Part shown: positions 6,719-56,194 of the stretch, piece after piece | Numbering within the stretch: the stretch's first letter is position 1 | How the letters are laid out: every line of letters begins with the position of its first letter | From: an uncultured Planctomycetales bacterium | GTDB taxonomy: Bacteria; Omnitrophota; Gorgyraeia; Zapsychrales; Fredricksoniimonadaceae | DNA length: 64,000 bases | Direction of reading: 5' to 3' | NCBI GenBank assembly: GCA_964572155.1 | Contig: CAZNDZ010000001.1 | Coordinates: forward strand, 15,300-79,299 | Position numbers and translations under genes: made by a program | The notes under the pieces: generated by a model | Seen by the model: only the letters and a program-made list of their open reading frames with translations | Databases searched by the model: none | What the model was told of the DNA's origin: nothing

Positions 6719-7468
6719 TTACCTTAATTTCATGAATTTGTGTGTTTGAGGGATTATTCTAACATCGGTTAAATGTTTAGAACAATATTTCTGAAGCTCG
6801 ACAGATTGCGCAATGCACCCGTCGGCTTTCTTCATATCAAAATAATTGGGCTGCAAGATAAACGGCAAATGCGGGTCAATGCGTTTAACCAGATCAACGG
6901 CTTTATAGACCTCCGCTTCTAACGTATCTGCTGAAATCACCACCTTAATAAAGGTTGGTTTTGTAACGGCTATTTTTAAGAAAGCTTCATGTTCCTCCCA
7001 GAATGCTTGTTGTTGCGTCGAGGATGGCAACTTGATGTCCATGGCCACAATATCAACGTGTTTGATCAAACGTTGTAATTGATCGGGTAAGGTGCCGTTG
7101 GTTTCTAAATAAATCTTCATGCCCGCTTGATGCAACTGTGGCAAGAATGCTTCTAAGAAATCAACTTGTATCAACGGTTCTCCGCCGGTGATGCTAACGG
7201 AATGACACCCTTCATAAAGCGCCTTAACTTGACGTAACAGATCTTCTAATCCAACGTCTTTATAATTGCGGCTCGTATCACCAATAGATGCGGGCGTATC
7301 GCACCAGACACAATGCATGTTGCATTCAAAGAAACGCACAAAAACTTGGGGGCGCCCCATGTAAGGGCCTTCGCCTTGGATGGAACGAAACACTTCCAGT
7401 ATTTTAGCGTCAGGCGATGCCAGCATCGAGGAATCCTTGTTCACGCAAGCGGCAGCTATCACAAACAC
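6719..7468 (-). CDS. queE: 7-carboxy-7-deazaguanine synthase (radical SAM)
   Basis: EVFRSIQGEGPYMGRPQVFVRFFECNMHCVWCDTP gives the CxxxCxxC-type cluster motif of QueE. The real start may be the internal Met near 7426, which would reduce the overlap with queC. Confidence 0.85.
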   Translation of the reverse strand: MFVIAAACVNKDSSMLASPDAKILEVFRSIQGEGPYMGRPQVFVRFFECNMHCVWCDTPASIGDTSRNYKDVGLEDLLRQVKALYEGCHSVSITGGEPLIQVDFLEAFLPQLHQAGMKIYLETNGTLPDQLQRLIKHVDIVAMDIKLPSSTQQQAFWEEHEAFLKIAVTKPTFIKVVISADTLEAEVYKAVDLVKRIDPHLPFILQPNYFDMKKADGCIAQSVELQKYCSKHLTDVRIIPQTHKFMKLR

Positions 7469-8096
7469 CGCAGGGTTTTTGTTTTCCTTGATAGCACGAC
7501 CATGTCATGTGCAAAGGAACGTTGAGTTTTGCAGCTAATTGAATGATGCGAGCTTTGCTCAAATGAATGAGCGGTGTTTGCACCTTGATCGTCTTGCCTT
7601 GCACACCCGTCTTTAAACCTTGGGCTAACATGCTTTGAAAACTATCAATAAACGCTGGACGACAATCTGGGTACCCCGAATAATCAACCGCGTTAGCCCC
7701 AATAAAAATATGTTTAGCACCAATGGCTTCAGCAAATGATGCAGCGAAACTTAAGAAAATGATATTTCTCGCCGGAACATAGGTCACGGGAATATCCTTG
7801 CCTTCAAGTTTGCGATACTTAGGGACCACAATATTATTATCAAGCAACGCCGACCCCTTCCACGGCAACCCGATCGTCACCACATGAAACGGGCTTTTGG
7901 ACAATGTGGCAATTTTTTTAGCTGCGAGAATTTCTTTGCGATGGCGTTGGCCATAATCGAAAATCAGGCAATGCGTTTCATAGCCTTTGGATTTGGCATA
8001 ATACAATACGGTTGTGGAATCAAGCCCGCCGGAAAGCAGGACAACAGCTTTAGTCATAATAAATGATGCTGGCTGTATCCGATTCAAAGACTTCAA
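7410..8096 (-). CDS. queC: 7-cyano-7-deazaguanine synthase
   Basis: KAVVLLSGGLDSTTVL PP-loop and a C-terminal CGVCDSC zinc motif. 228 aa. Confidence 0.9.
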   Translation of the reverse strand: MKSLNRIQPASFIMTKAVVLLSGGLDSTTVLYYAKSKGYETHCLIFDYGQRHRKEILAAKKIATLSKSPFHVVTIGLPWKGSALLDNNIVVPKYRKLEGKDIPVTYVPARNIIFLSFAASFAEAIGAKHIFIGANAVDYSGYPDCRPAFIDSFQSMLAQGLKTGVQGKTIKVQTPLIHLSKARIIQLAAKLNVPLHMTWSCYQGKQKPCGVCDSCRLREQGFLDAGIA

Positions 8097-8412
8097 CAGA
8101 CTTTAATTGAAGCGGCGCCACCTGTGATTTTAACTGGGCGTGAATATACTTTGCTAGATTTTCCGTCGAAGGATTAACATTTTTAAATGCAGGGTGTTCA
8201 TTTAAATTTACATGGTCCAAGGGCTTTAAGACATCTTTGAGCTTCATCTTTAAAATCTTAAAATCCATCAACAAACCAATATTGTTTAATTGATCGCCTA
8301 TTAAGACAACTTCAACTTTCCATGTATGGCCATGCAATTGCGCGCACGGGCCATCATAACCGTTGAGCATATGTGCTGATGCGATATGATCTTTGACTTT
8401 TAACTCAAACAT
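8050..8412 (-). CDS. queD: 6-carboxy-5,6,7,8-tetrahydropterin synthase
   Basis: CAQLHGHTWKVEV and the PTPS-family fold. 120 aa. Sits in the queDCEF cluster. Confidence 0.85.
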   Translation of the reverse strand: MFELKVKDHIASAHMLNGYDGPCAQLHGHTWKVEVVLIGDQLNNIGLLMDFKILKMKLKDVLKPLDHVNLNEHPAFKNVNPSTENLAKYIHAQLKSQVAPLQLKSVEVFESDTASIIYYD

Positions 8413-9250
8413 TGACTTTTAAAACCTCTTTAACCCCGCCGCCTAAAAAACGCTGGGCCATGCGTTTAAAATTTTCTGGTTCGTCGCTGACTAAAAATGT
8501 ATGTTCTGCAGGGGACAACTGCATGCGCAACAACTTCTTCTCCAACAATATCTGCCTCACCTGCGCCGCCACTTCCTCGGCGGAATCGATGAGATTAACC
8601 TTCGGCCCCATGCAAGAGTGTAACACATTTTTAAGCAATGGGTAGTGCGTGCACCCTAGGATCAGGCTATCCACCTTGGCCTTCTTAATCGCCGCCAAGT
8701 ACTCTTCTGCCACCTTATAGGTAACAGCATGATTAAACCAACCCTCTTCGACCAAGGGCACAAACAAAGGGCAAGCCTGTGATGTCACGGCGATGCGTCG
8801 ATCTAAAGCCTTAATCTCTGCAGCATAAGCCCCACTTTTGATCGTCGAAGAAGTGGCTATAATACCAACTTTCTTGGTTTTTGTCGATAGCGCGGCTTTG
8901 CGCGCCCCTGGGCCAATTACCCCAATGATGGGGACCTTACATTCTTTTGATAAGACATTGAGTGCCAATGCAGATGCGGTATTACACGCCACAATGATCA
9001 CCTTCACCTTATGCTGTTGTAAAACCTTCACAATCTGACGGGAATAGCGGATGATTGTTTCCGCAGACTTTGTCCCATAAGGCACACGGGCGGTATCACC
9101 AAAATAAACAATGCGTTCATTAGGCAAAAATTGAATGACCTGTTTGACAACGGTTAAGCCGCCTAAACCTGAATCAAAAACTCCGATGGGGAAATTAGAT
9201 TTATGAGTCTGTGGCATATTTAATGATGCTGTGCGCGATGGCCTCAGCAA
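8405..9250 (-). CDS. murI: Glutamate racemase
   Basis: IGVFDSGLGGLTV and VIIVACNTAS and GCTHYPLL are the catalytic-Cys motifs of MurI. 281 aa. Confidence 0.85.
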   Translation of the reverse strand: MLRPSRTASLNMPQTHKSNFPIGVFDSGLGGLTVVKQVIQFLPNERIVYFGDTARVPYGTKSAETIIRYSRQIVKVLQQHKVKVIIVACNTASALALNVLSKECKVPIIGVIGPGARKAALSTKTKKVGIIATSSTIKSGAYAAEIKALDRRIAVTSQACPLFVPLVEEGWFNHAVTYKVAEEYLAAIKKAKVDSLILGCTHYPLLKNVLHSCMGPKVNLIDSAEEVAAQVRQILLEKKLLRMQLSPAEHTFLVSDEPENFKRMAQRFLGGGVKEVLKVNV

Positions 9251-10244
9251 TTTTTTGGCGGTATGCGAGTGAACTTAATTTCTTTTCTTCATGACGATTG
9301 GACAAATAACCGACTTCAACCAACACGGCGGGGATTAACGTATTACGCACTACAAAAAATCTACAATGTCGAGCCCCACGGTTAACGACTCCCGTTTCAC
9401 TGGCACTTTCTTTCACGATTCTTTTAGCCAACGTCTCTGATTGAGAAACTTTTTGTGCATACATCATATCGGCCACAATATCTTCTAAAATACCAGAGTA
9501 AGTACTATTTAATTTCTTAACAAATATTTTCTCATTCTTAGCACGTTGCTCCTCATCTAAATCCCGCTTTGATGTTGTCTTTGCATAATAAACCTCAATC
9601 CCCTCTGTTTTTCTAGCAGGATTAGAATTGGCATGAACACTTACGAATAAATCTGCGTCTGATTTTGTTGCAATTTCAGTTCGTTGAGGCAACGAAATAA
9701 ATTCATCACGATCACGTGTTAATATTACTTTTAAACCAGCTTCTTCTAGATAATCTTTCATATGACGGGCAATATCTAAAACAACTGTTTTTTCCTTAAT
9801 ACCCGTCGCTCCTTGCGTGCCTGGATCTTTACCCCCATGCCCCGCATCAATAACAACTGTCCTAATCCTAGTTCTACTCCAATCCACTTGTGCCCCGCCC
9901 TGTGGCGCAATCACGCCTAGCGGTACTAAAACCTTACTTTCAAAATCATCTGGAACAAAAATATTACTATTCACGCGACGCAATGGCGCACTAAGGGTAA
10001 CTCGGTCACGATTAACCATGACAACACGGCTGCCGACCAAGGCTTTGGCTTTATTGCCTTGAAATTCTAATAACACCACTTGCGTAACCCCATCCCATTG
10101 CCAGCTAACATGGTATTGATTACAAATCTCATTTAAATCAATGCCCATGGGTGGCGGTGGTGGTGGCGTCGGAGTTCCCGCGCAACCATGCAAGAACAAC
10201 ACCAACATGGTTACCAAGCATAATTTTAAAACATGCCTAAACAT
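9201..10244 (-). CDS. N-acetylmuramoyl-L-alanine amidase (Amidase_3 family, AmiC-like lipoprotein)
   Basis: Lipoprotein signal (LFLHGCAG), Pro-rich linker, then VVIDAGHGGKDPG...DLFVSVHAN...GYLSN, the characteristic Amidase_3 zinc-binding motifs. Confidence 0.8.
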   Translation of the reverse strand: MFRHVLKLCLVTMLVLFLHGCAGTPTPPPPPPMGIDLNEICNQYHVSWQWDGVTQVVLLEFQGNKAKALVGSRVVMVNRDRVTLSAPLRRVNSNIFVPDDFESKVLVPLGVIAPQGGAQVDWSRTRIRTVVIDAGHGGKDPGTQGATGIKEKTVVLDIARHMKDYLEEAGLKVILTRDRDEFISLPQRTEIATKSDADLFVSVHANSNPARKTEGIEVYYAKTTSKRDLDEEQRAKNEKIFVKKLNSTYSGILEDIVADMMYAQKVSQSETLAKRIVKESASETGVVNRGARHCRFFVVRNTLIPAVLVEVGYLSNRHEEKKLSSLAYRQKIAEAIAHSIIKYATDS

Positions 10245-10928
10245 CTATTGTCCCTTAGCCGTTAAAAATATGATTGTCTCAACGCGCTGCATTAATTTGC
10301 CTTTATTACGAAAAACTAATCCCACAATCGGCAAATCACCTAATAAGGGAAACTTGTGTGTTTTAGTAACTTCATGCTCATAAAAAATTGAACCCATGAC
10401 AATCGTCGATCTAGGTTTCAAATCAAGGCGCGTTGAACCAACTTTACTCTTGATGGTAGGCTGCAACATCAGCTGCTTTTCACCTTTGCTATCCATCGTT
10501 AATTCCACATCGAGAGCAATTGTATTTTTTACATCTTCTTTAAGAAATACTAACGTTTGTTTTTCATCTGCCGTTAAGGTTATGGTCTCCTGATCAACCT
10601 GGGTTACCTTACCAACTGCATCCAAGGCATCTAACAAAACCCCATAGTCTTCGTCGGATACTGAGCCAACGCTCAACTTTTTCTTATTCTCAAGTGCATC
10701 ATCACTCTTAAGCGTGACCGCATGAAAATCACTAACAATGGCTTCCCAATCAACGCCATCCCGGTGTTCGTCGTTTAAGATAATTGATACCACATGTGGT
10801 TGAAGGATAATTTGAGCCAACGGGGTCGTTGCATTCTCTTGCGCCCAAGCTGGTAACGCAAACAAAACACAACACAACAGAAGCCATGAAGCCTGTAACT
10901 TATGAAATCTCATTGTCGACATTCTCAT
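10245..10928 (-). CDS. Small secreted secretin-like protein: an N-domain-like region plus only the conserved secretin C-terminal tail
   Basis: Signal peptide (WLLLCCVLFALPAWAQE). The C-terminus FPLLGDLPIVGLVFRNKGKLMQRVETIIFLTAKGQ matches the invariant C-terminal motif of T2SS/T4P secretins. At 227 aa it is far shorter than a canonical secretin of over 400 aa. Confidence 0.45.
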   Translation of the reverse strand: MRMSTMRFHKLQASWLLLCCVLFALPAWAQENATTPLAQIILQPHVVSIILNDEHRDGVDWEAIVSDFHAVTLKSDDALENKKKLSVGSVSDEDYGVLLDALDAVGKVTQVDQETITLTADEKQTLVFLKEDVKNTIALDVELTMDSKGEKQLMLQPTIKSKVGSTRLDLKPRSTIVMGSIFYEHEVTKTHKFPLLGDLPIVGLVFRNKGKLMQRVETIIFLTAKGQ

Positions 10929-11830: not shown

Positions 11831-11888
11831 GTAAACCTTCCCGACTATAAAGTTGCTAAATAAAACGTGTTAGTATATACTTTTAAGT

Positions 11889-13256
11889 ATGAAATGTCTA
11901 GAAAACCGTCGCGGTCAATCCATGATCGAACTGTCCTTTGTGGCTTTAGCTGTTATTGCTGGGATCGTCATAGGCGGGCCATATTTACTAGACTCGATCA
12001 ACAGCCATTTTAAAATTTGGGACACCGCTGTTAGTGATTCAACCAATGATCGTTTGGTTAAAGCCAATAAAGAAGATTTAAATATTCCGTCCCAAGCATG
12101 CGTTCCTCAAGGTAAGGCGCCAGGCAGTTGCGGAGATCCTCGGGGTAATTGTCAAGAAACACAACGATTCTTTACCCATCAATACACCCCTGTTGGTTGC
12201 CAGACAAACTTTTCCTGTGAAGATGACAGCGAATGTTGCTCCATCCCCCAGCTCACCCAACTCTGCTGGCGAAAGAATGACCCTCAAAATGGCGCACGCC
12301 TTTGGGCTTCTACCACTGACATTACTGCAGATGTTGCATCAAAAGGATTTATTTCATGTTACCCCAACGGTGTTTACACTCCCAGTGCTTCCAATTGCAA
12401 GAATGGCGATCAACTCTATCAATTCTCTTGTGGCAACAAAAAAAACATGTTTGTTGGCTTACCCAATCGGGATAAATGCTTGCCTGTTTGCAATTGGGAT
12501 GCCATCCCACCAAACTCGACCGCTTGTCCAAATCAAGGTAATGGTGATCTTATGGCTGATAGTCAAGATCCTAGTATTATCGAAACAAAAACCCCTTGCT
12601 CAACATTCAGTGGAGATTGTCAAGCCCAATGCAATGATGGATATAAACGAAATAACGGAACCTGTACAGAAACCGCCTGTGAACTCGTTACTACATTTAA
12701 TACTGGCGCTTCTCAAGGGTCGTATTACAGCTCAGCTAGGTATGATGAAGTAGTAAGATTTATTTCTGATGTTTGTGCAGATGATTTTAATTATTCCTAC
12801 AGGGTCGATGGTGGTCCGTGGCAAGGTAACTGTCCAGGCCCCATATGGACATGTAATTACTCAGATAAGAATAAACATGATGGTGGTGGCACCGCGCAAT
12901 GCGCCCGCATTAATGAACGAGGGCACCAGATTGAGATTTACCTTTGGGATGGTGGCGATGGACATGATAATACACAAATTTCAGGATATATTTATCTCGA
13001 TGGCGTATGTTCTGCAACAAGAAATGGAGGATGGGGCGAATGGGGACCTTGCACTGCGCCTTATGCTTACACTTGCTTAGGAGTTCAATATCGCTCCTGT
13101 AATAACCCCGCTCCTGCTTATGGCGGAGAAAACTGTCCTAATTTTGCCAATGCGTATTATCAAATCTGTAATCTCCCCATTGGAACACCTGCTTGTTTCT
13201 GTCGAGATAATCCTAATGATGCTAGCTGCCAATCTAGTGGCGGAGATGGCCGATAA
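11889..13256 (+). CDS. Type IV pilin-like (class III signal) protein with a large Cys-rich extracellular domain containing a thrombospondin type-1-like repeat
   Basis: N-terminus RRG|QSMIELSFVALAVIAGIVIGG has the prepilin-peptidase G/xxxxE pattern with Glu at +5. About 40 Cys. C-terminus WGEWGPCTAPYAYTCLGVQYRSCNNPAPAYGGENC resembles the TSP1 WxxWxxC...TC.G...R.C..P...GG..C consensus. Confidence 0.5.
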   Translation: MKCLENRRGQSMIELSFVALAVIAGIVIGGPYLLDSINSHFKIWDTAVSDSTNDRLVKANKEDLNIPSQACVPQGKAPGSCGDPRGNCQETQRFFTHQYTPVGCQTNFSCEDDSECCSIPQLTQLCWRKNDPQNGARLWASTTDITADVASKGFISCYPNGVYTPSASNCKNGDQLYQFSCGNKKNMFVGLPNRDKCLPVCNWDAIPPNSTACPNQGNGDLMADSQDPSIIETKTPCSTFSGDCQAQCNDGYKRNNGTCTETACELVTTFNTGASQGSYYSSARYDEVVRFISDVCADDFNYSYRVDGGPWQGNCPGPIWTCNYSDKNKHDGGGTAQCARINERGHQIEIYLWDGGDGHDNTQISGYIYLDGVCSATRNGGWGEWGPCTAPYAYTCLGVQYRSCNNPAPAYGGENCPNFANAYYQICNLPIGTPACFCRDNPNDASCQSSGGDGR

Positions 13257-14492: not shown

Positions 14493-17400
14493 TTAGAATT
14501 TCTTCAAGACACTTAAGCGGAATAAATGCTGCGTTTCTAATACCGTCGAGGCGTAGTAAGCCAAACGCGGGTCATAGACATTGGTCGCCACATTATAAGC
14601 AGGACCGACGCCATACTCTAAACCTAACCAACTATCTGGCGCAAACACCCATCGGGTAGCAAAATATAAATTGTGATACCCGCGATATTCAATCTCCGGT
14701 GTTGCTTGACCTAATTTCACAAAATCATTCCAACGCGAATAGCTGTAACGGCCAAATAGCCCCCAGTTTTTGGTGATCAAATAACTGCTTTCAATCCCAA
14801 AATGGTTCATGTTATCGTCGATATTACCGGCAAAAACATTAGAATTGCGGGTATAATCAAGGTAAATGTGCCACTTATCCGTCGGGACTAATTCCAAACC
14901 TGTTTTCATAATGCTAAAGTAGTCATATGGTGGGGTGTCAAACAAACCACCAGAATACACAAATGGCACTTGCTTTGTATAAAGCCGTGTTTCATCGCGG
15001 AAGGTTGTGATAAAGGAACTGTTTAAGTCTGCTTGTGGAAAATTATCCGCTGCTAGTGTTGAGTCATTGGTATATTCCCACACCCCATTTAACGCTGCCC
15101 ATTGGGTTAATTGATAACGCGCGCCAACAGATGTGGTGGTTGTGCTTGGATCTTCCCCGCCCCTAACAGCTGCATTCTGCAATGCCTCACCTGTATCACC
15201 ATCATAAACATAAGGGTCGATCCCTTGCGTAGTTTTAGGTAACTTATCCCAAATAAATAAAAACTTGGTGGTTAATTCATCGGTTGCTTTATAATCCCAA
15301 TGTGTTTGGCTGACAGTTTCAATTTTTTTCTGATGTTGCCCCTCAACATTAACAACTTGGCGTATATCGGTCGTTCCTTTTAATCGCCCATCAAGCATGC
15401 CAACATCATAACGCCACCCATAAGCCATGCGGCCATAGTCTAAGCCATCACCTATCGCAAAAGGTGAAAGATCATCTTCACTGGCATAAGCCATTTGGGC
15501 AACACCTGGCAAATATCTAAACGTCGACGGATAAAACGTCAAATGACGATTCCAAAATGCATCTTTGCGGGTTGAATGATAGTTGGATAATGTTGATTCA
15601 AAGTCTTGATCCATACGTCCAATATAGGCACGGGTCTTATAGAAGTTTGTGTCCTTAGAACCTGACGCAATACCATAATAATCTTTTCGATTCATCATGT
15701 AAGGATCAGATGTAGCGGTGATCGACGTGTAATAGGCATTTCCATATTTCTTAGTTTGCCACTTAGCATCGGTTGCATCATATTGGCTCGATGAAAAACT
15801 GTATTGAGCATTCCACTTCACATTTTCAAAAGGCATAATCCCTGTGTCAATGCTCCCGACGTAGTTACGACCATCTTGGCTGGACTTGACAAACCCTTCG
15901 TGATCTGCGGCAGTACCACCGATATAAAATCCTTCATCAAAATAATGCTTTAAGCGGGCACTTGCAGCCAATGTGTCAAAATCACTATAGTTTTGCCATA
16001 ATGTTTTTGGTGATGCAATCACAAAATCTAACGATGTATCTGGTTCGGGATTAAATGCAAATTTGGCCCCGCGCAACGCTGTCAAACGCTGACCAGAACT
16101 ATCCCTCGTCCCAAAACTTAATGAACGATCCCAATAACCTTTTGTGTAACTACCAGCTAAGTCATTAAAATTTCCTGGTTGCCAGCTGCGTAACCATGGG
16201 CTTTCTTCCCAATAAGAACGGTTATTGGATAACTTTAATGGATCGTCCGTTGTTAATGCTTGATTCTCATACGCCATTGGGAAAGCGCGGAAGAAAACAC
16301 TGTCCGTTGGTTTAAAATCTAACCATGCTTCACGGATCGGCATGAATGTATATTCTAGCTTTTGCTCAGGGAGATTAAAGAAACCACCAAAGGTTGTCCC
16401 GACGCGGTTGGCAGGAATAATGTTACCATTTTGAATCTTAATTTCTGGAAGAGCTAGAGCATCCCCCGTACGTGTGGTTCTTAAAATACGGCCAATTGTG
16501 TAGGTATTGCTTCCAATGCTTAAATATTGCAATTTCACAATGTCGCCGCTACCTTGCTGCACATAAACTTCTTTGGATTTCCCTGTCAAGCTCCATGGAT
16601 CTAGGGTTACATTAATATGGGTTGCCACCGACGATGCCACCGACGCATCCACGACAAATTTCATGCGCGAATATAGAGCCGGGTCAAAGGTTTCAAGACG
16701 ATTATTTAAGGCCTTATCTGACAAAATGCGATAATTACGTTCATTTAAATCCGCATTAGCGCGATTGAAACGCACACGGCCGTTGGGATAGATACCAATC
16801 GATGAATACAATTCACCTGAAACTTTAAATTTATTTTTCTTAGAAGATCGTTTACGATCTTTAGCCAAAGCTTCTGCAAATGTTTGCGGTCTTTCATTTA
16901 CACCTGTATTTGGTAAATCTGTCACTACTTCTTCCGTCGCTGATTCATCATCTACTGCTACTTCAGCAACATAATCTTGAGGATTAGCTTGAGCTTGAAC
17001 AATGATTTCAGGTGATTGCGCGGTAATCGTATCATCCAAGCGTTTAATTGTTTGGGCTGACGCCAAGGTTGGCATCACATTGGTCTTTGTCACAATCGGC
17101 AGCGGCGCTTGTGCAACTACTTTTTGTGTCGACGGCACAAGATTAGTCTTAACAACTGGCGCATCGCTCTTGATAACAGGCACGACCACAGGTTTATTGA
17201 CAGGTGTAGCACTTATCGGTTTTACAGCAGCCACATTTACTACCGGCTCAACCGTTTTTGTAACTGTCGGAATAACTGGCAAAGTAGTTGCTATTATAGG
17301 AGTAGACGGTGCTGTTGTTGACTGAACAACGCTGGGCGTTGATAAATTATCTAAACTTGTGTTAACCGCATTAATGACAGTGGCTGACACAGGAACCGTC

Positions 17401-17651
17401 TTTGCATCACTACAAGGCTTCTCTGGGCACTCTGGACATGCTGGGCATGGTGGGCAAGGCGCTTGTCTTAACGTAATGCCACCGCCATTTGGTATTTCTA
17501 AAAGGTCTAAAATCTCTAGGATTAACTTATCACGATTAGGCTTACTAAAATTCTCAATTTCAGCCGCATAAGACACAGACGGGCCAATGCTTAAAATTAG
17601 GCAAAGAAAAAATAAAATAAACCGCTTATATGGCGCTACTTTTGAGTTCAT
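14493..17651 (-). CDS. Very large secreted protein with a C-terminal beta-barrel-type signature (putative outer-membrane or surface protein)
   Basis: Signal peptide (FLCLILSIGPSVSYAAE). CPPCPACPECPEKPC Cys-Pro motif. About 150 aa of Thr/Pro/Val-rich low-complexity linker. A roughly 800-aa Tyr/Gly/Asp-rich domain ending in alternating hydrophobic residues and a terminal Phe (RLSVLKKF), typical of OMP beta-barrels. Confidence 0.5.
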   Translation of the reverse strand: MNSKVAPYKRFILFFLCLILSIGPSVSYAAEIENFSKPNRDKLILEILDLLEIPNGGGITLRQAPCPPCPACPECPEKPCSDAKTVPVSATVINAVNTSLDNLSTPSVVQSTTAPSTPIIATTLPVIPTVTKTVEPVVNVAAVKPISATPVNKPVVVPVIKSDAPVVKTNLVPSTQKVVAQAPLPIVTKTNVMPTLASAQTIKRLDDTITAQSPEIIVQAQANPQDYVAEVAVDDESATEEVVTDLPNTGVNERPQTFAEALAKDRKRSSKKNKFKVSGELYSSIGIYPNGRVRFNRANADLNERNYRILSDKALNNRLETFDPALYSRMKFVVDASVASSVATHINVTLDPWSLTGKSKEVYVQQGSGDIVKLQYLSIGSNTYTIGRILRTTRTGDALALPEIKIQNGNIIPANRVGTTFGGFFNLPEQKLEYTFMPIREAWLDFKPTDSVFFRAFPMAYENQALTTDDPLKLSNNRSYWEESPWLRSWQPGNFNDLAGSYTKGYWDRSLSFGTRDSSGQRLTALRGAKFAFNPEPDTSLDFVIASPKTLWQNYSDFDTLAASARLKHYFDEGFYIGGTAADHEGFVKSSQDGRNYVGSIDTGIMPFENVKWNAQYSFSSSQYDATDAKWQTKKYGNAYYTSITATSDPYMMNRKDYYGIASGSKDTNFYKTRAYIGRMDQDFESTLSNYHSTRKDAFWNRHLTFYPSTFRYLPGVAQMAYASEDDLSPFAIGDGLDYGRMAYGWRYDVGMLDGRLKGTTDIRQVVNVEGQHQKKIETVSQTHWDYKATDELTTKFLFIWDKLPKTTQGIDPYVYDGDTGEALQNAAVRGGEDPSTTTTSVGARYQLTQWAALNGVWEYTNDSTLAADNFPQADLNSSFITTFRDETRLYTKQVPFVYSGGLFDTPPYDYFSIMKTGLELVPTDKWHIYLDYTRNSNVFAGNIDDNMNHFGIESSYLITKNWGLFGRYSYSRWNDFVKLGQATPEIEYRGYHNLYFATRWVFAPDSWLGLEYGVGPAYNVATNVYDPRLAYYASTVLETQHLFRLSVLKKF

Positions 17652-21843: not shown

Positions 21844-23223
21844 CTAAAATATCCAGCACCCCCACGGTACATGTGAGAACCATAGGGCAAATATGATCAT
21901 GGCGCTTAATATTGCTTTTAAACATGCGGCAACGAGAGTGGCTAAAGGCGGAGAAAAACTCACGGCGATTAAACATAAACCTAACGCCATCACCATGTCT
22001 GCCAGCGGCACGACGGGGATATTGGCCAAGATGGATATCGGTGTGATCATGTGAAAGTGATATAGGATAATTGGTGCGGTTGCTATGAATGCTGCGATGG
22101 ATACGGCGATGGGTAATGCAATGAGCTTTGGGAGAAATGTTATTACACCTTCGATGGACTTAGTTAATACTAAGATGCCTAAAACCGCAGCAAAAGACAA
22201 TTGAAAGCCCACATCGAACAGATTATTTGGATCAAGGCACAATAAAATTAACGCAGCAAACCCTAATGTATTTAATGCATCCCCCTCGTATTCCCATGCA
22301 AATGTGGACAATAACACGGCGCTCATGATCGTGGCCCGCACAACCGATGGCGACCAGCCACTGGTATAGGCATATGCAAATAGAAAAATGGCTGTCATGA
22401 TAAACTTCCATCGTCGTGTAAACGGCATTAATTGGAATATAAAGAAAATTACTGTCACAACCACCGCCATATTCATCCCACTGATGGCAAGGATATGTGC
22501 TGTTCCTGTATTAACGAAAACTTCTTTAAGATCTTTAGGCATTTTATGACGATCACCAATCACCAACGCTGAAACAAAGGCCGCTTCACGAGGTGCAAGA
22601 TAGACGTCAAAAATTTGATTGATGTAAGCGCGCAAATTGTTAGCGCTGGCAATCATGGCATTGCCCTGATGAAAACCTAATGACTCAACTCCATCTTTTT
22701 GTGGGGAAAACATCCAATATATGCCGCGTTCTTGCAAATACTGACGATATGAGAAACTACCTGACCTCATATCATAGATTGGAAACATTTTGCCCTTAAT
22801 ACGCACACGTTGCCCATACCTCACATCCAATTGAGTTTCTCCCCATACCCTTAGTTTTACCGACCCGCTGACCTTGCGCCAATCTTCACCTACCTTTATT
22901 TGATAAACATTCACAAGTAAGTCATCAACAGACCGAACCACACCCTCAATGGCTTCACAATGTATAGCATTCCTATATGATAAAAATCCTAAGGAATCGT
23001 TGGGTAATAAATGACGCTGTGTGATCCAAACCATTCCCAAAACAAAAACAAGCACGTAAATGATCACCTGCATTTCTTTGAAAACATATAGAAGTAAAAA
23101 TGCACTGCCCCCTAAGAACAACCACCATAACGGCATCATCAACCACTTGCCTACAACGATCCCTAAGGCAAAGACAATGCACAGCATCAGACATGGACGA
23201 TGTGTTTTAATGTTCATGCCCAT
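21844..23223 (-). CDS. comEC: DNA internalisation competence protein ComEC/Rec2 (short form without a metallo-beta-lactamase domain)
   Basis: Polytopic membrane protein with the competence-domain motif GDRHKMPKDLKEVFVNTGTAHILAISGMNMAVV. 459 aa. Confidence 0.8.
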   Translation of the reverse strand: MGMNIKTHRPCLMLCIVFALGIVVGKWLMMPLWWLFLGGSAFLLLYVFKEMQVIIYVLVFVLGMVWITQRHLLPNDSLGFLSYRNAIHCEAIEGVVRSVDDLLVNVYQIKVGEDWRKVSGSVKLRVWGETQLDVRYGQRVRIKGKMFPIYDMRSGSFSYRQYLQERGIYWMFSPQKDGVESLGFHQGNAMIASANNLRAYINQIFDVYLAPREAAFVSALVIGDRHKMPKDLKEVFVNTGTAHILAISGMNMAVVVTVIFFIFQLMPFTRRWKFIMTAIFLFAYAYTSGWSPSVVRATIMSAVLLSTFAWEYEGDALNTLGFAALILLCLDPNNLFDVGFQLSFAAVLGILVLTKSIEGVITFLPKLIALPIAVSIAAFIATAPIILYHFHMITPISILANIPVVPLADMVMALGLCLIAVSFSPPLATLVAACLKAILSAMIIFALWFSHVPWGCWIF

Positions 23224-54973: not shown

Positions 54974-56194
54974 TTAAATTTCGTAGATTTCTTTAAGGTA
55001 AGCTTGATGCTCGGGCTTGAAGTTATTCCAGAATGTGCTGTTTTTAACAAGGCCTTGTACAAACGGTTTAGACAAGGTGAAATCCATGTTAAAGGTGCGT
55101 GGGTATTTCGTTTCTTTAAAGAAGTACATGCCTGGGCCTTCTTTAAGCAACATCGTATGGCGATAAGCATCCGGGATGCTTAATTTCATCAACACCGCCG
55201 GAGCAGCGTTGGCACCATGATAGGCTTTTGCTGGGCTGATGGTTTCAAAATTCAAATATTTGTATAAGAATTCATGGCGTGGATGACAACCGATGATAAA
55301 ATCCGTAACCTTATTCGACGCACGTGCATAATCGAACATCGTCTTGTATAACTTATATAGATACGCTTGTTTCTGGAAATTCTTAAACGAGTATTGCTTC
55401 ATGTTCACATGTTGAGAATTTAACGCCAATGCGCCTACTTCCGCAATCTTCTTGCCTTGTGCACGCAGGTTCTTAATTTCTTCAGGAAAAATTGTTTCCA
55501 TCGGAATGCCCATCGGTGAATCTGCCACCAAACACATGGTCCCTAAAAGTTTTTCATCTTTGCGAAGCAAGAAGGTGCGTGATCCGGGAACAAAACTATA
55601 AGAATTATAAAACATGTTTTCTTGATTAGGCACACACAACTTGCGTGACAAATATTCTTGATACACCAACGCATATGCCGCTTTTAATTCATCCAAATCA
55701 TCGACGTCTAAACCACTACAATCTGCCGTATATTTTTCTAAGAACCAGCTATTAATATCAGCCAAACTCCAAAGCACATTATTTAATTGATGAAATTTGA
55801 TCGCTTTTTCTTTAAACGCAATGTGACATAGGTTCTGATTATTTTTACCTGTAGAAAAACCAACAACCTTGCCCGTTAATTTAAAAACTTCACGGACATT
55901 CATATTCTTCTTGGGTATCTCAACATCAATGGCTTCTCCAACTTCAACCAAACCACTAACTTCAATGCACATACCGCTACGAGAAATATTAACCGTCTTT
56001 GACATTTCCCACGTAGGATTAACTTGATTTGATAATTGGTAATATATAGGAATGACTTTATTAATGCGGTTTTCGCGGCGTAATTCATCCACAAAAACAG
56101 TTTTCATAATACTGGAAGATAACTGCTGAAGCCCTTCTTCCAAATGTTCGAAGGGATTGCTTGATTCTGTAGTATGGTCCAACTTGAATTTCAT
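54974..56194 (-). CDS. Fusion of an N-terminal PilZ domain with a C-terminal GNAT-fold N-acyltransferase of the FeeM/OlsB/autoinducer-synthase-like family (Acetyltransf_5)
   Basis: PilZ motifs ELRRENRI (RxxxR) and NISRSGMCIEV (NxSxxG). The C-terminal about 250 aa (LKAAYALVYQEYL..., FLLRKDEKLLGTMCLVADSPMGIPME, IAEVGALAL) fits the N-acyl-amino-acid synthase family pattern. Confidence 0.5.
   Translation of the reverse strand: MKFKLDHTTESSNPFEHLEEGLQQLSSSIMKTVFVDELRRENRINKVIPIYYQLSNQVNPTWEMSKTVNISRSGMCIEVSGLVEVGEAIDVEIPKKNMNVREVFKLTGKVVGFSTGKNNQNLCHIAFKEKAIKFHQLNNVLWSLADINSWFLEKYTADCSGLDVDDLDELKAAYALVYQEYLSRKLCVPNQENMFYNSYSFVPGSRTFLLRKDEKLLGTMCLVADSPMGIPMETIFPEEIKNLRAQGKKIAEVGALALNSQHVNMKQYSFKNFQKQAYLYKLYKTMFDYARASNKVTDFIIGCHPRHEFLYKYLNFETISPAKAYHGANAAPAVLMKLSIPDAYRHTMLLKEGPGMYFFKETKYPRTFNMDFTLSKPFVQGLVKNSTFWNNFKPEHQAYLKEIYEI

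Follow-up and report, generated by a model that had tools for sequence, protein, structure and literature searches.

The stretch of DNA analysed here, referred to as the window, comprises 64,000 nucleotides of an uncultured Planctomycetales bacterium assigned to the Omnitrophota (GenBank assembly GCA_964572155.1, contig CAZNDZ010000001.1, positions 15,300 to 79,299 of the forward strand). The gene of interest is a complete open reading frame (ORF; 11889..13256 on the plus strand) which encodes 455 residues followed by a stop codon and reads exactly as quoted in a first-pass annotation; if the product were cut at G9|Q10 its mature length would be 446 residues. A prepilin-like N-terminus, a cysteine-rich core, a β-sandwich-like middle domain and a thrombospondin type-1 repeat (TSR) follow one another in the protein (Table 1), for which a modular type IV pilin-like subunit is the interpretation favoured below. 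The cysteine count is 33 (7.25%) instead of the approximately 40 annotated initially; 32 of these are located past the leader, and no other ORF of the window is as rich in cysteine (the runner-up has 4.3%). A single hydrophobic segment is present (residues 12–30, mean Kyte–Doolittle value 2.25), the rest of the protein being devoid of another. The gene is flanked by a divergent rsmB-like methyltransferase gene on one side and a convergent crcB gene on the other, and its guanine–cytosine (GC) content is ordinary for the window (∼42%, uniform). An identical protein is present on seven public contigs.

Conservation was assessed against the orthologue at locus L001, which is 68% identical and retains every cysteine; the overall ratio of nonsynonymous to synonymous substitution rates (dN/dS) was ∼0.12. 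All modules of the 455-residue protein are under purifying selection, with the proportion of nonsynonymous differences (pN) far under that of synonymous differences (pS) for each of them. Two overlapping ORFs, 12193–12753 (+) and 12078–12287 (−), were rejected, since it is the main frame that purifying selection has conserved.

The N-terminus reads MKCLENRRG|QSMIE and continues with LSFVALAVIAGIVIGGPYLL. As the first-pass annotation proposed, it is laid out like a class III (prepilin-type) signal, in which a brief basic leader with Gly or Ala as its last residue precedes Glu at +5 and ∼20 hydrophobic residues; here the leader closes with Gly9, Glu occupies +5 relative to it and Gln +1. The hydrophobic part of the first helix (α1N, QSMIELSFVALAVIAGIVIGGPYLL) contains Glu +5, Gly +16 and Pro +22, and is followed by a conserved amphipathic part (α1C, DSINSHFKIWDTAVSDS). 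Pilins are marked by a charged Glu at the fifth residue of their transmembrane helix, which membrane anchors do not usually have. Among 100 representatives of the protein family, 87 contain the motif x-Q-[S/T]-x-x-E near the start, and the 13 without it are mostly truncated gene calls. In these 87 proteins the residue at −1 is Gly (66) or Ala (20; 23%), the median leader length is seven residues and position +6 is most often Tyr (69) or Leu (13). Pro is found at +22 in ∼75 family members, and mature positions 21–23 are GPY or GPF in 68. Cys3 (codon 3, 11895–11897) is invariant in five close homologues (M-x-C...R-x-G/A-Q-S) and is not conserved family-wide; a lipoprotein reading was rejected, as there is no lipobox and Cys3 is preceded by MK.

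The relationship to known prepilins was examined by profile comparison. An alignment of the family N-terminus (A3) was compared using hhalign with an alignment of 30 genuine PF07963 prepilins (A7) obtained via the pilin module of P0008, a metagenome protein described below. The two alignments matched over 45 columns (probability 92.6%, E = 4.4e-7) with Gly−1 placed on Gly−1 and Glu+5 on Glu+5. The real score was 36.4, compared with 10.5±2.4 for column shuffles (maximum 19.1; 0 of 200 reached the real score) and 17.4 for the reversed alignment. The window N-terminus by itself scored 16.4 bits against a hidden Markov model (HMM) of the pilin N-terminus, a value above the best of 1000 full shuffles (9.1) and above the best of 1000 in which only the hydrophobic block was permuted (14.6). 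Relatives with the EY motif scored 14.6–23.6 bits against Flp_Fap (cutoff 32.2), in register (protein residues 2–38 on profile positions 4–40 of 46), and at most 18.5 bits against TadE (cutoff 22.9), likewise in register. On these comparisons the N-terminus is judged to be homologous to class III signals, with a motif closest to the Flp/TadE type, and too divergent for the curated models. A continuous helix was predicted by AlphaFold2 over residues 12–53 (42 residues; predicted local distance difference test score, pLDDT, ∼80–89), and the first four predicted strands (residues 72–81, 92–100, 107–112 and 121–126) come straight after α1, as in the pilin fold. Mean pairwise identity within the family is 53% in the helix and falls to 35, 27 and 17% in successive globular parts; a variable globular part behind a conserved N-terminal helix is the usual pilin pattern.

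The family itself was missed by a word-indexed search and was uncovered by an exhaustive search, from which ∼100 representatives were retrieved; it comprises about 100 or more clusters at 50% identity. It is an undescribed family restricted to the Omnitrophota: in public sources its members are unnamed or called 'hypothetical protein', and the core has no curated domain assignment. A scan of 41 members with NCBIfam gave nothing relevant, a tblastn search of annotated plasmids with the family N-terminus gave no match, and the literature searched contained nothing connecting thrombospondin type-1 repeats with Omnitrophota. All close homologues have the helix and the family-defining core with its 19 cysteines (residues 1–265 in total), and C71, C81, C88, C104, C110, C116, C117 and C126 are invariant across the 41 members. 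The core gave no Pfam, NCBIfam or PDB sequence match, and neither the profile of the whole family (A2) nor that of the N-terminus (A3) found anything meaningful among PDB sequences. The middle domain (dN/dS ∼0.09) is shared with P0002 and P0003 and is also found in the distant member P0067; weak Foldseek matches of ∼110–125 residues to PPC, CBM and KP-43 C-terminal sandwiches (E ≥ 3e-3) probably correspond to this domain.

The C-termini of the family vary. The TSR is present in two of the 100 representatives, namely the window protein and its close homologue P0002. In other members, P0045, P0012 and P0013 among them, the C-terminus is formed by a PA14, Hint/intein-like, Gly_rich_2 or BclA_C module or by a long cysteine-rich extension or repeat region without an assigned domain; the member at locus L005 (1847–4375, minus strand) has 842 residues and 74 cysteines. 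Because the C-terminal modules differ between members, the family looks like a polymorphic display scaffold.

The identification of the C-terminal module as a TSR, which agrees with the TSP1 module annotated at first pass, is well supported by sequence. When the isolated segment (residues 372–455) was searched against PDB sequences using phmmer, the TSRs of thrombospondin-1 came first (PDB entry 1LSL, E = 6.5e-10) and the top 21 matches were all TSR proteins, including ADAMTS13, properdin, ADAMTS-5 and UNC5. In an exhaustive phmmer search (1.84 billion representatives) dozens of multi-TSR proteins matched only residues ∼373–430. As a control for cysteine richness, a custom TSR HMM was built from 300 canonical units of unrelated proteins. 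The window protein scored 33.1 bits over the whole model (residues 379–428) and the orthologue P0002 27.2 bits, compared with 8.4 bits for the best of 98 other, equally cysteine-rich family members and 6.0 bits for the best of 1000 composition-preserving shuffles of the C-terminus. The Pfam TSP_1 model (PF00090), suggested as a check in the first-pass annotation, scored 20.7–20.8 bits on the isolated segment (E = 4.5e-4 to 4.9e-4) and remained 0.9 bits below its gathering cutoff of 21.6. Full-length Pfam and NCBIfam scans of the 455-residue protein gave no hits, because the HMMER filters miss a short domain inside a long protein.

The string WGEWGPC...GGENC, which had been thought to end the protein, corresponds to residues 382–416 and is followed by a further 39 residues with four cysteines. 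W382-G-E-W385 and R402 align with the Trp and Arg columns of thrombospondin-1 (TSP-1) TSR3 and of units from P0006 and P0008, the Trp–Arg ladder being cut down to two Trp and one Arg. Six cysteines occur in the canonical order, with C388, C396, C404, C416, C427 and C436 (or C447) on Cys1–6. In one MAFFT alignment C447 was set under canonical Cys6, and one of the tail cysteines may serve as Cys6 of the TSR or make a fourth disulfide. All nine C-terminal cysteines are kept in P0002. Compared with the 68%-identical orthologue, the TSR has pN 0.164 and pS 0.688 (dN/dS ∼0.10, with dS near saturation).

The origin of the repeat was addressed by comparing it with 1039 TSR-like units cut from multi-TSR matches. 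The closest unit (BLOSUM62 local score 143) lies in P0008, an ENA metagenome protein of 1392 residues in which a canonical G|FTLVE prepilin signal is followed by 15 TSP_1 repeats. The pilin module of P0008 belongs to a family of 1368 proteins (∼260 residues) with a TSR in none of the top 120; this PF07963 type of pilin occurs in metagenome-assembled genomes (MAGs) of Rickettsiales, Nitrospira and Pseudomonadota. The next closest units were found in the subtilases P0143 and P0065 (ENA metagenome proteins, Peptidase_S8), which contain several divergent TSR-like units (NGGWSAWGSCGC...GIQYRSCTNPAPSGGG) that are missed by Pfam TSP_1 at E ≤ 1e-3. These units have a long Cys1–Cys2 loop and a G(I/V)QYRSC strand in common with the window TSR, and the shared loop suggests that the three form a prokaryotic TSR subtype. 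Further prokaryote-type architectures combine TSP_1 with CARDB, or a lipoprotein with TSP_1 and Peptidase_C39_2. Most TSR proteins in the databases are eukaryotic, and as an adhesion module the repeat is known above all from animals and malaria parasites. Because the closest units reside in prokaryote-type proteins (the prepilin with 15 TSRs and the subtilases), the term 'eukaryote-like' used at first pass is misleading, and it is more fitting to view the window TSR as coming from a small pool of prokaryotic repeats than to give it that label.

A metagenome scan with the 455-residue protein gave no relatives, a metagenome scan with a TSR DNA motif gave mostly eukaryotic exon fragments and no new orthologue, and an indexed homology search with the 84-residue TSR fragment gave no candidates. 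Two hits of the DNA motif contain TSR-like units with an NPAPAYGGANC strand. The first, L019 (12005–14605, minus strand, of a 68.5 kb metagenome contig), is a prokaryote-looking ORF of more than 867 residues; the second, L020, is an equally prokaryote-looking open frame of 269 residues with an N-terminal KMIKRGAIYCLILVFLFTGIFSVNA that resembles a signal peptide. The other 14 hits are eukaryotic exon-like fragments.

Table 1. Features of the pilin-like gene, its product and its surroundings in the window.
Feature	Position	Strand	Basis
Cysteine-rich modular pilin-like protein	11889..13256	+	ORF reading, orthologue conservation, selection
Leader peptide, residues 1–9 (MKCLENRRG)	11889..11915	+	Sequence reading; predicted prepilin-peptidase site G9|Q10
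α1 helix, residues 10–53	11916..12047	+	AlphaFold2 helix 12–53, conservation, hhalign to pilins
Family-defining cysteine-rich β domain, residues 71–265, 19 Cys	12099..12683	+	AlphaFold2, pLDDT mostly >90
Middle β-sandwich-like domain, residues 266–372, 4 Cys (plus C374 just beyond)	12684..13004	+	AlphaFold strands 265–370, pLDDT ∼60–90
TSR, residues 378–437, NGGWGEWGPC-TAPYAYTC-LGVQYRSC-NNPAPAYGGENC-...QIC-...PAC	13020..13199	+	phmmer, Pfam sub-cutoff, custom HMM
C-terminal tail, residues 438–455 (CRDNPNDASCQSSGGDGR), two more Cys	13200..13253	+	Sequence reading; kept in P0002
Promoter-like site TTGCTA-17-TATACT	11853..11881	+	Consensus scan only, not evidence of function
Mini-secretin, 227 residues, signal peptide and C-terminal half of secretin domain	10245..10928	−	Pfam Secretin E = 7e-14, profile 70–166 of 169

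Upstream of the gene a sole promoter-like site was seen, within the 58 bp that separate it from the divergent rsmB-like gene; its −10 hexamer stops 8 nt short of the ATG, and no Shine–Dalgarno sequence was seen in the upstream sequence. On these two grounds the mRNA is possibly a leaderless one. Past the stop codon, no hairpin resembling a terminator was found.

Further loci of the family were located in a species-level genome collection using a degenerate DNA motif for the invariant stretch GPYxLxSxNxHFKxWD. Ten loci were found, all in Candidatus Omnitrophota MAGs or in assemblies labelled 'uncultured Planctomycetales'; two of the latter (L005 and L009) have the synteny of the window clade, and a third (L007) has the pilMNO adjacency of Omnitrophota loci. 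In the window clade, L005 and L009 the gene order is murI, Amidase_3, mini-secretin and rsmB-like, with the family gene on the opposite strand, and crcB. At L007, L011, L012 and L013 the family gene is divergent from a pilM–pilN–pilO–secretin cluster and is the sole pilin-like ORF there; at L011 the neighbours were assigned by Pfam as PilM_2 (4e-38), PilN (1e-6), PilO (4e-8) and a full secretin with STN and Secretin_N domains (4e-44). Genes of the tad type (tadA/B/C, rcpA, tadV) adjoin none of the family members examined, and scans of the window for further pilin-like ORFs, Flp-sized ones included, gave none.

The mini-secretin is encoded on the opposite strand, two genes upstream of the pilin-like gene, and is shorter than a normal secretin. 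Its position is kept in L001, L002, L005, L009 and L031 (diverged Omnitrophota), and it is 32% identical over 68 residues to the PilQ-like secretin of L011. The conserved synteny may reflect a functional link with the pilin-like protein. T4a pili are found in nearly all Velamenicoccia and are common in other classes of Omnitrophota, and Tad systems occur in many (PMC10066038). Many small genes with class III signal peptides adjoin loci resembling type II secretion systems or type IV pili in this phylum (bioRxiv 10.1101/2023.11.21.568195).

Several other genes of the window and of L002 deserve mention. A ComEC/Rec2-type competence channel is encoded in the window at 21844–23223 on the minus strand (Pfam Competence 1.7e-59 plus DUF4131), with a counterpart at the same relative position in L001, which suggests a capacity for DNA uptake; in other bacteria this process depends on pseudopili of the type IV filament class. 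A protein of 1052 residues (14493–17651, minus strand) has a signal peptide, contains CPPCPACPECPEKPC as a motif close to the N-terminus, ends in the manner of an outer-membrane protein (...LKKF) and gave no Pfam hit; syntenic counterparts (948–1244 residues) occur in L001, L002, L003/L014 and L009. In L002 two multi-pass membrane genes (6953–9501, plus strand; 443 and 406 residues, no Pfam on record) directly follow the homologue P0003. The first of them opens with an HTTM-like string (DLRSLALFRIGLG), a resemblance only, and gave no hit in a PDB sequence search. A gene at 54974–56194 on the minus strand of the window fuses a PilZ (c-di-GMP-binding) domain to a FeeM-type N-acyl amino acid synthase domain and lies upstream of a MacB/FtsX-type ABC transporter operon.

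The interpretation preferred here, which is put somewhat above even, is that the protein is a modular type IV pilin-like subunit, either a minor pilin or a pseudopilin, of Candidatus Omnitrophota that carries a β-sandwich and a TSR. In its favour are the class III-type N-terminus, the long predicted α1 helix with a disulfide-rich body and a distal TSR behind it, the exchangeable C-termini of the family and the pilMNO–secretin neighbours of relatives; the wide occurrence of T4a pili and Tad systems in the phylum and the two precedents for a pilin joined to TSRs (P0008 and an entry of the survey discussed below) also speak for it. The N-terminal hydrophobic segment would insert the protein into the inner membrane and a prepilin peptidase (PilD- or TadV-type, encoded elsewhere) would cleave at G9|Q10, after which a type IV filament machine, T4a-like or Tad-like, would pull the subunit out via α1N and incorporate it into a pilus or a short pseudopilus. 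Because of its bulk (446 residues when mature) the tip would be the most likely position. The 32 cysteines would pair as disulfides and stiffen the exposed part, and the β-sandwich and the TSR would serve to bind a ligand, either a glycan or a protein, displayed by a partner cell, a prey cell or a particle.

A number of observations weigh against this interpretation. PF07963 (N_methyl), the other profile suggested as a check at first pass, did not match the full protein or its isolated 60-residue N-terminus at E ≤ 10, while the N-terminus of P0008, used as a positive control, scored 27.2 bits (cutoff 21.2). The Flp_Fap and TadE HMMs also failed to match the window protein at E ≤ 10, and no relative reached the curated cutoffs of these two models. 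Ala at −1 is unusual among substrates of the bacterial prepilin peptidase and is also found in the orthologue P0002. The conservation of α1C (NAHFKLWD) throughout the family is strong, a feature that pilins do not typically show and that may be due to a different interaction. A Foldseek search of the PDB with the full model gave no hit below 1e-3 and no pilin; the TSR was modelled by AlphaFold2 with a pLDDT of only ∼30 in the full model and 46.6 in isolation with a seven-sequence alignment, the latter therefore being too low for a fold search. The conserved neighbours in the window clade are housekeeping genes (rsmB-like, crcB, amidase and murI) together with a single secretion-related one, the mini-secretin, and Pfam searches of 30 other ORFs of the 64 kb window yielded no prepilin peptidase, pilus ATPase or platform protein, nor does the window contain a major or second pilin.

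Several of these observations can also be claimed by the main rival, which has a real though small chance of being correct. It would make the protein a bitopic envelope protein with an uncleaved signal anchor (N-terminus in, C-terminus out). The cysteine-rich ectodomain would then remain in the periplasm, anchored in the inner membrane, and would work together with the conserved neighbours (mini-secretin, Amidase_3 and MurI) in cell-envelope biology, no filament being involved. A lone hydrophobic segment preceded by positive charges is what such an anchor looks like, and the clade synteny with envelope and housekeeping genes instead of pilus genes, the machinery missing from the window, the unmatched curated pilin HMMs, the Ala at −1 in 23% of members and the Foldseek result all fit. 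A signal anchor would however leave unexplained the near-invariant G/A(−1)-Q-S-x-x-E(+5) motif and Pro +22 across ∼100 diverged proteins, the in-register and controlled profile match to genuine prepilins and the pilMNO–secretin adjacency in four genomes, and Glu five residues into the helix is a feature of pilins. Should the protein be only an envelope protein anchored in the inner membrane, the finding would be a new cysteine-rich domain family and a rare bacterial TSR.

A lower probability still is given to a sub-variant of the pilin-like interpretation in which the protein is a Tad-type (type IVc) pseudopilin similar to TadE, TadF or TadG, processed by TadV and acting within a Tad apparatus instead of with a PilMNOQ set. 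The G|xxxxEY motif of Flp/TadE substrates is present in most members (the 69 with Tyr at +6), the only curated N-terminal matches among relatives are to Flp_Fap (nine of 100 members at E ≤ 1e-3, best 4.6e-5) and TadE (18.5 bits), and the distribution of Tad systems in the phylum (PMC10066038) is compatible with it. On the other side, none of these matches reaches its curated cutoff, the window clade carries Leu at +6 (G|QSMIEL) and gives no match at all, and the only assembly genes near the members examined are pilM/N/O and a PilQ-type secretin, with no tad gene beside them.

It is very unlikely that the product is a soluble cysteine-rich protein secreted by the Sec pathway with a type I signal peptide cut by signal peptidase I, in which case the TSR would belong to a free or outer-membrane-associated adhesin or toxin. 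The N-terminus is basic and then hydrophobic like that of any signal peptide, and 32 conserved cysteines clearly indicate an extracytoplasmic location; the hydrophobic stretch of ∼21 residues, however, is longer than a Sec h-region, runs into the predicted 42-residue helix and has no Ala-x-Ala-type c-region after it, and the conserved residues lie around Gly9–Glu14 and not at the end of the hydrophobic region. The explanation that survives least well is that the TSR is a chance likeness in a sequence rich in Cys, Gly, Pro and Trp, or a product of eukaryotic contamination or very recent eukaryotic transfer, which can draw on the Pfam score short of its cutoff, the empty full-length scans and the predominance of eukaryotic TSR proteins in the databases, and against which stand the HMM and phmmer scores and their controls, the low dN/dS of the module at near-saturated synonymous sites, the ordinary GC content, the nearest single units in prokaryote-type proteins and the conserved bacterial synteny, on account of which contamination was rejected.

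A wider proposal built on the pilin-like interpretation is offered tentatively and may well not hold. The proteins would constitute an Omnitrophota-wide family of disulfide-rich, polymorphic filament-tip subunits with a Flp-like signal and PilMNOQ-type neighbours, the swappable modules of which serve in host or prey recognition by ultra-small, probably epibiotic or predatory bacteria; the TSR would have been recruited from the prokaryotic pool and is the same module that apicomplexans use for attachment to the host. Omnitrophota are abundant, uncultured and mostly ultra-small; an attached or predatory life on other microbes is suspected, and type IV pili are the leading candidates for making the contact (PMC10066038). 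The family supplies concrete candidate adhesins with interchangeable binding modules for such cell–cell contact, and the TSR-bearing member provides a ligand hypothesis, namely sulfated or acidic glycans or surface proteins, as with eukaryotic TSRs. The finding also adds to the evidence for TSRs moving between the surface proteins of prokaryotes, with at least two independent fusions to a pilin carrier.

Compared with well characterized TSRs (TSR2 and TSR3 of human TSP-1, PDB entry 1LSL; properdin; ADAMTS13; UNC5), the window repeat has the same WxxW motif, six cysteines, central-strand Arg and NPxPxxGGxxC strand, with about 40–47% identity to individual repeats. It differs in that the usual three Trp are reduced to two and the usual two or three Arg to one, that four residues are inserted between Cys1 and Cys2, and that Cys5 and Cys6 are nine residues apart where about five are common; it is also a single copy near the end of a bacterial protein, and its TSR fold is putative. 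The eukaryotic C-mannosylation and O-fucosylation machinery is not expected in this case. P0008 represents the same type of fusion, a prepilin-type N-terminus with TSP_1 modules; in contrast to the window protein, its N_methyl signal (G|FTLVE) is canonical, its globular pilin domain is unrelated, the repeats are 15 in tandem and a cysteine-rich core is absent. Because the lineages differ, the two fusions are taken to be independent.

Among filament subunits, Flp and TadE/TadF/TadG (PF04964, PF07811) have the same short leader, the G|xxxxE(Y/F) motif found in most family members and HMM alignments in register with them. TadG-type pseudopilins are large too, whereas mature Flp has ∼50 residues compared with 446 here, and the neighbours of the relatives are of the pilM/N/O/Q type and not tad. 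The minor pilins of the CofB/TcpB type (type IVb) are likewise large, with β-sandwich domains at the C-terminus of a pilin module and a proposed role in binding at the tip (PMC8179133). No sequence or Foldseek relationship to them was found, the signal class differs, and CofB and TcpB have neither a TSR nor a dense disulfide core.

The closest parallel is provided by the modular pilins, in which a carrier module is joined to domains foreign to type IV filament biology, a concept that the arrangement of helix and core, β-sandwich and TSR fits. A survey described more than 1,200 such proteins in 264 architectures, with PA14 and vWA among the frequent modules and display at the tip proposed (Raynaud et al., 2021; PMC8179133). 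PilB (vWA) and PilC (lectin) of Streptococcus sanguinis have the same class III signal and α1 carrier, C-terminal adhesion modules of non-pilus origin and predicted tip display, and PA14 is a module of the survey set and of the window protein's family alike. The window protein differs in lacking the IPR012902/PF07963 signature, the formal criterion of the survey, in having Gln at +1 and in the large family-specific core of 19 cysteines between the helix and the modules; the phylum Omnitrophota and the family are not discussed in that work (PMC8179133). Because Dataset S1 of the survey lists one protein with IPR012902 and two IPR000884 (TSP1) repeats, the combination of pilin and TSR is not unprecedented, and the 'unusual surface structure' foreseen at first pass was an overstatement. 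What is new in comparison with these systems is a phylum-restricted cysteine-rich carrier without a curated model, with a Flp-like instead of an N_methyl signal and yet PilMNOQ-type neighbours, together with its polymorphic C-termini and the arrangement of a β-sandwich with a single TSR.

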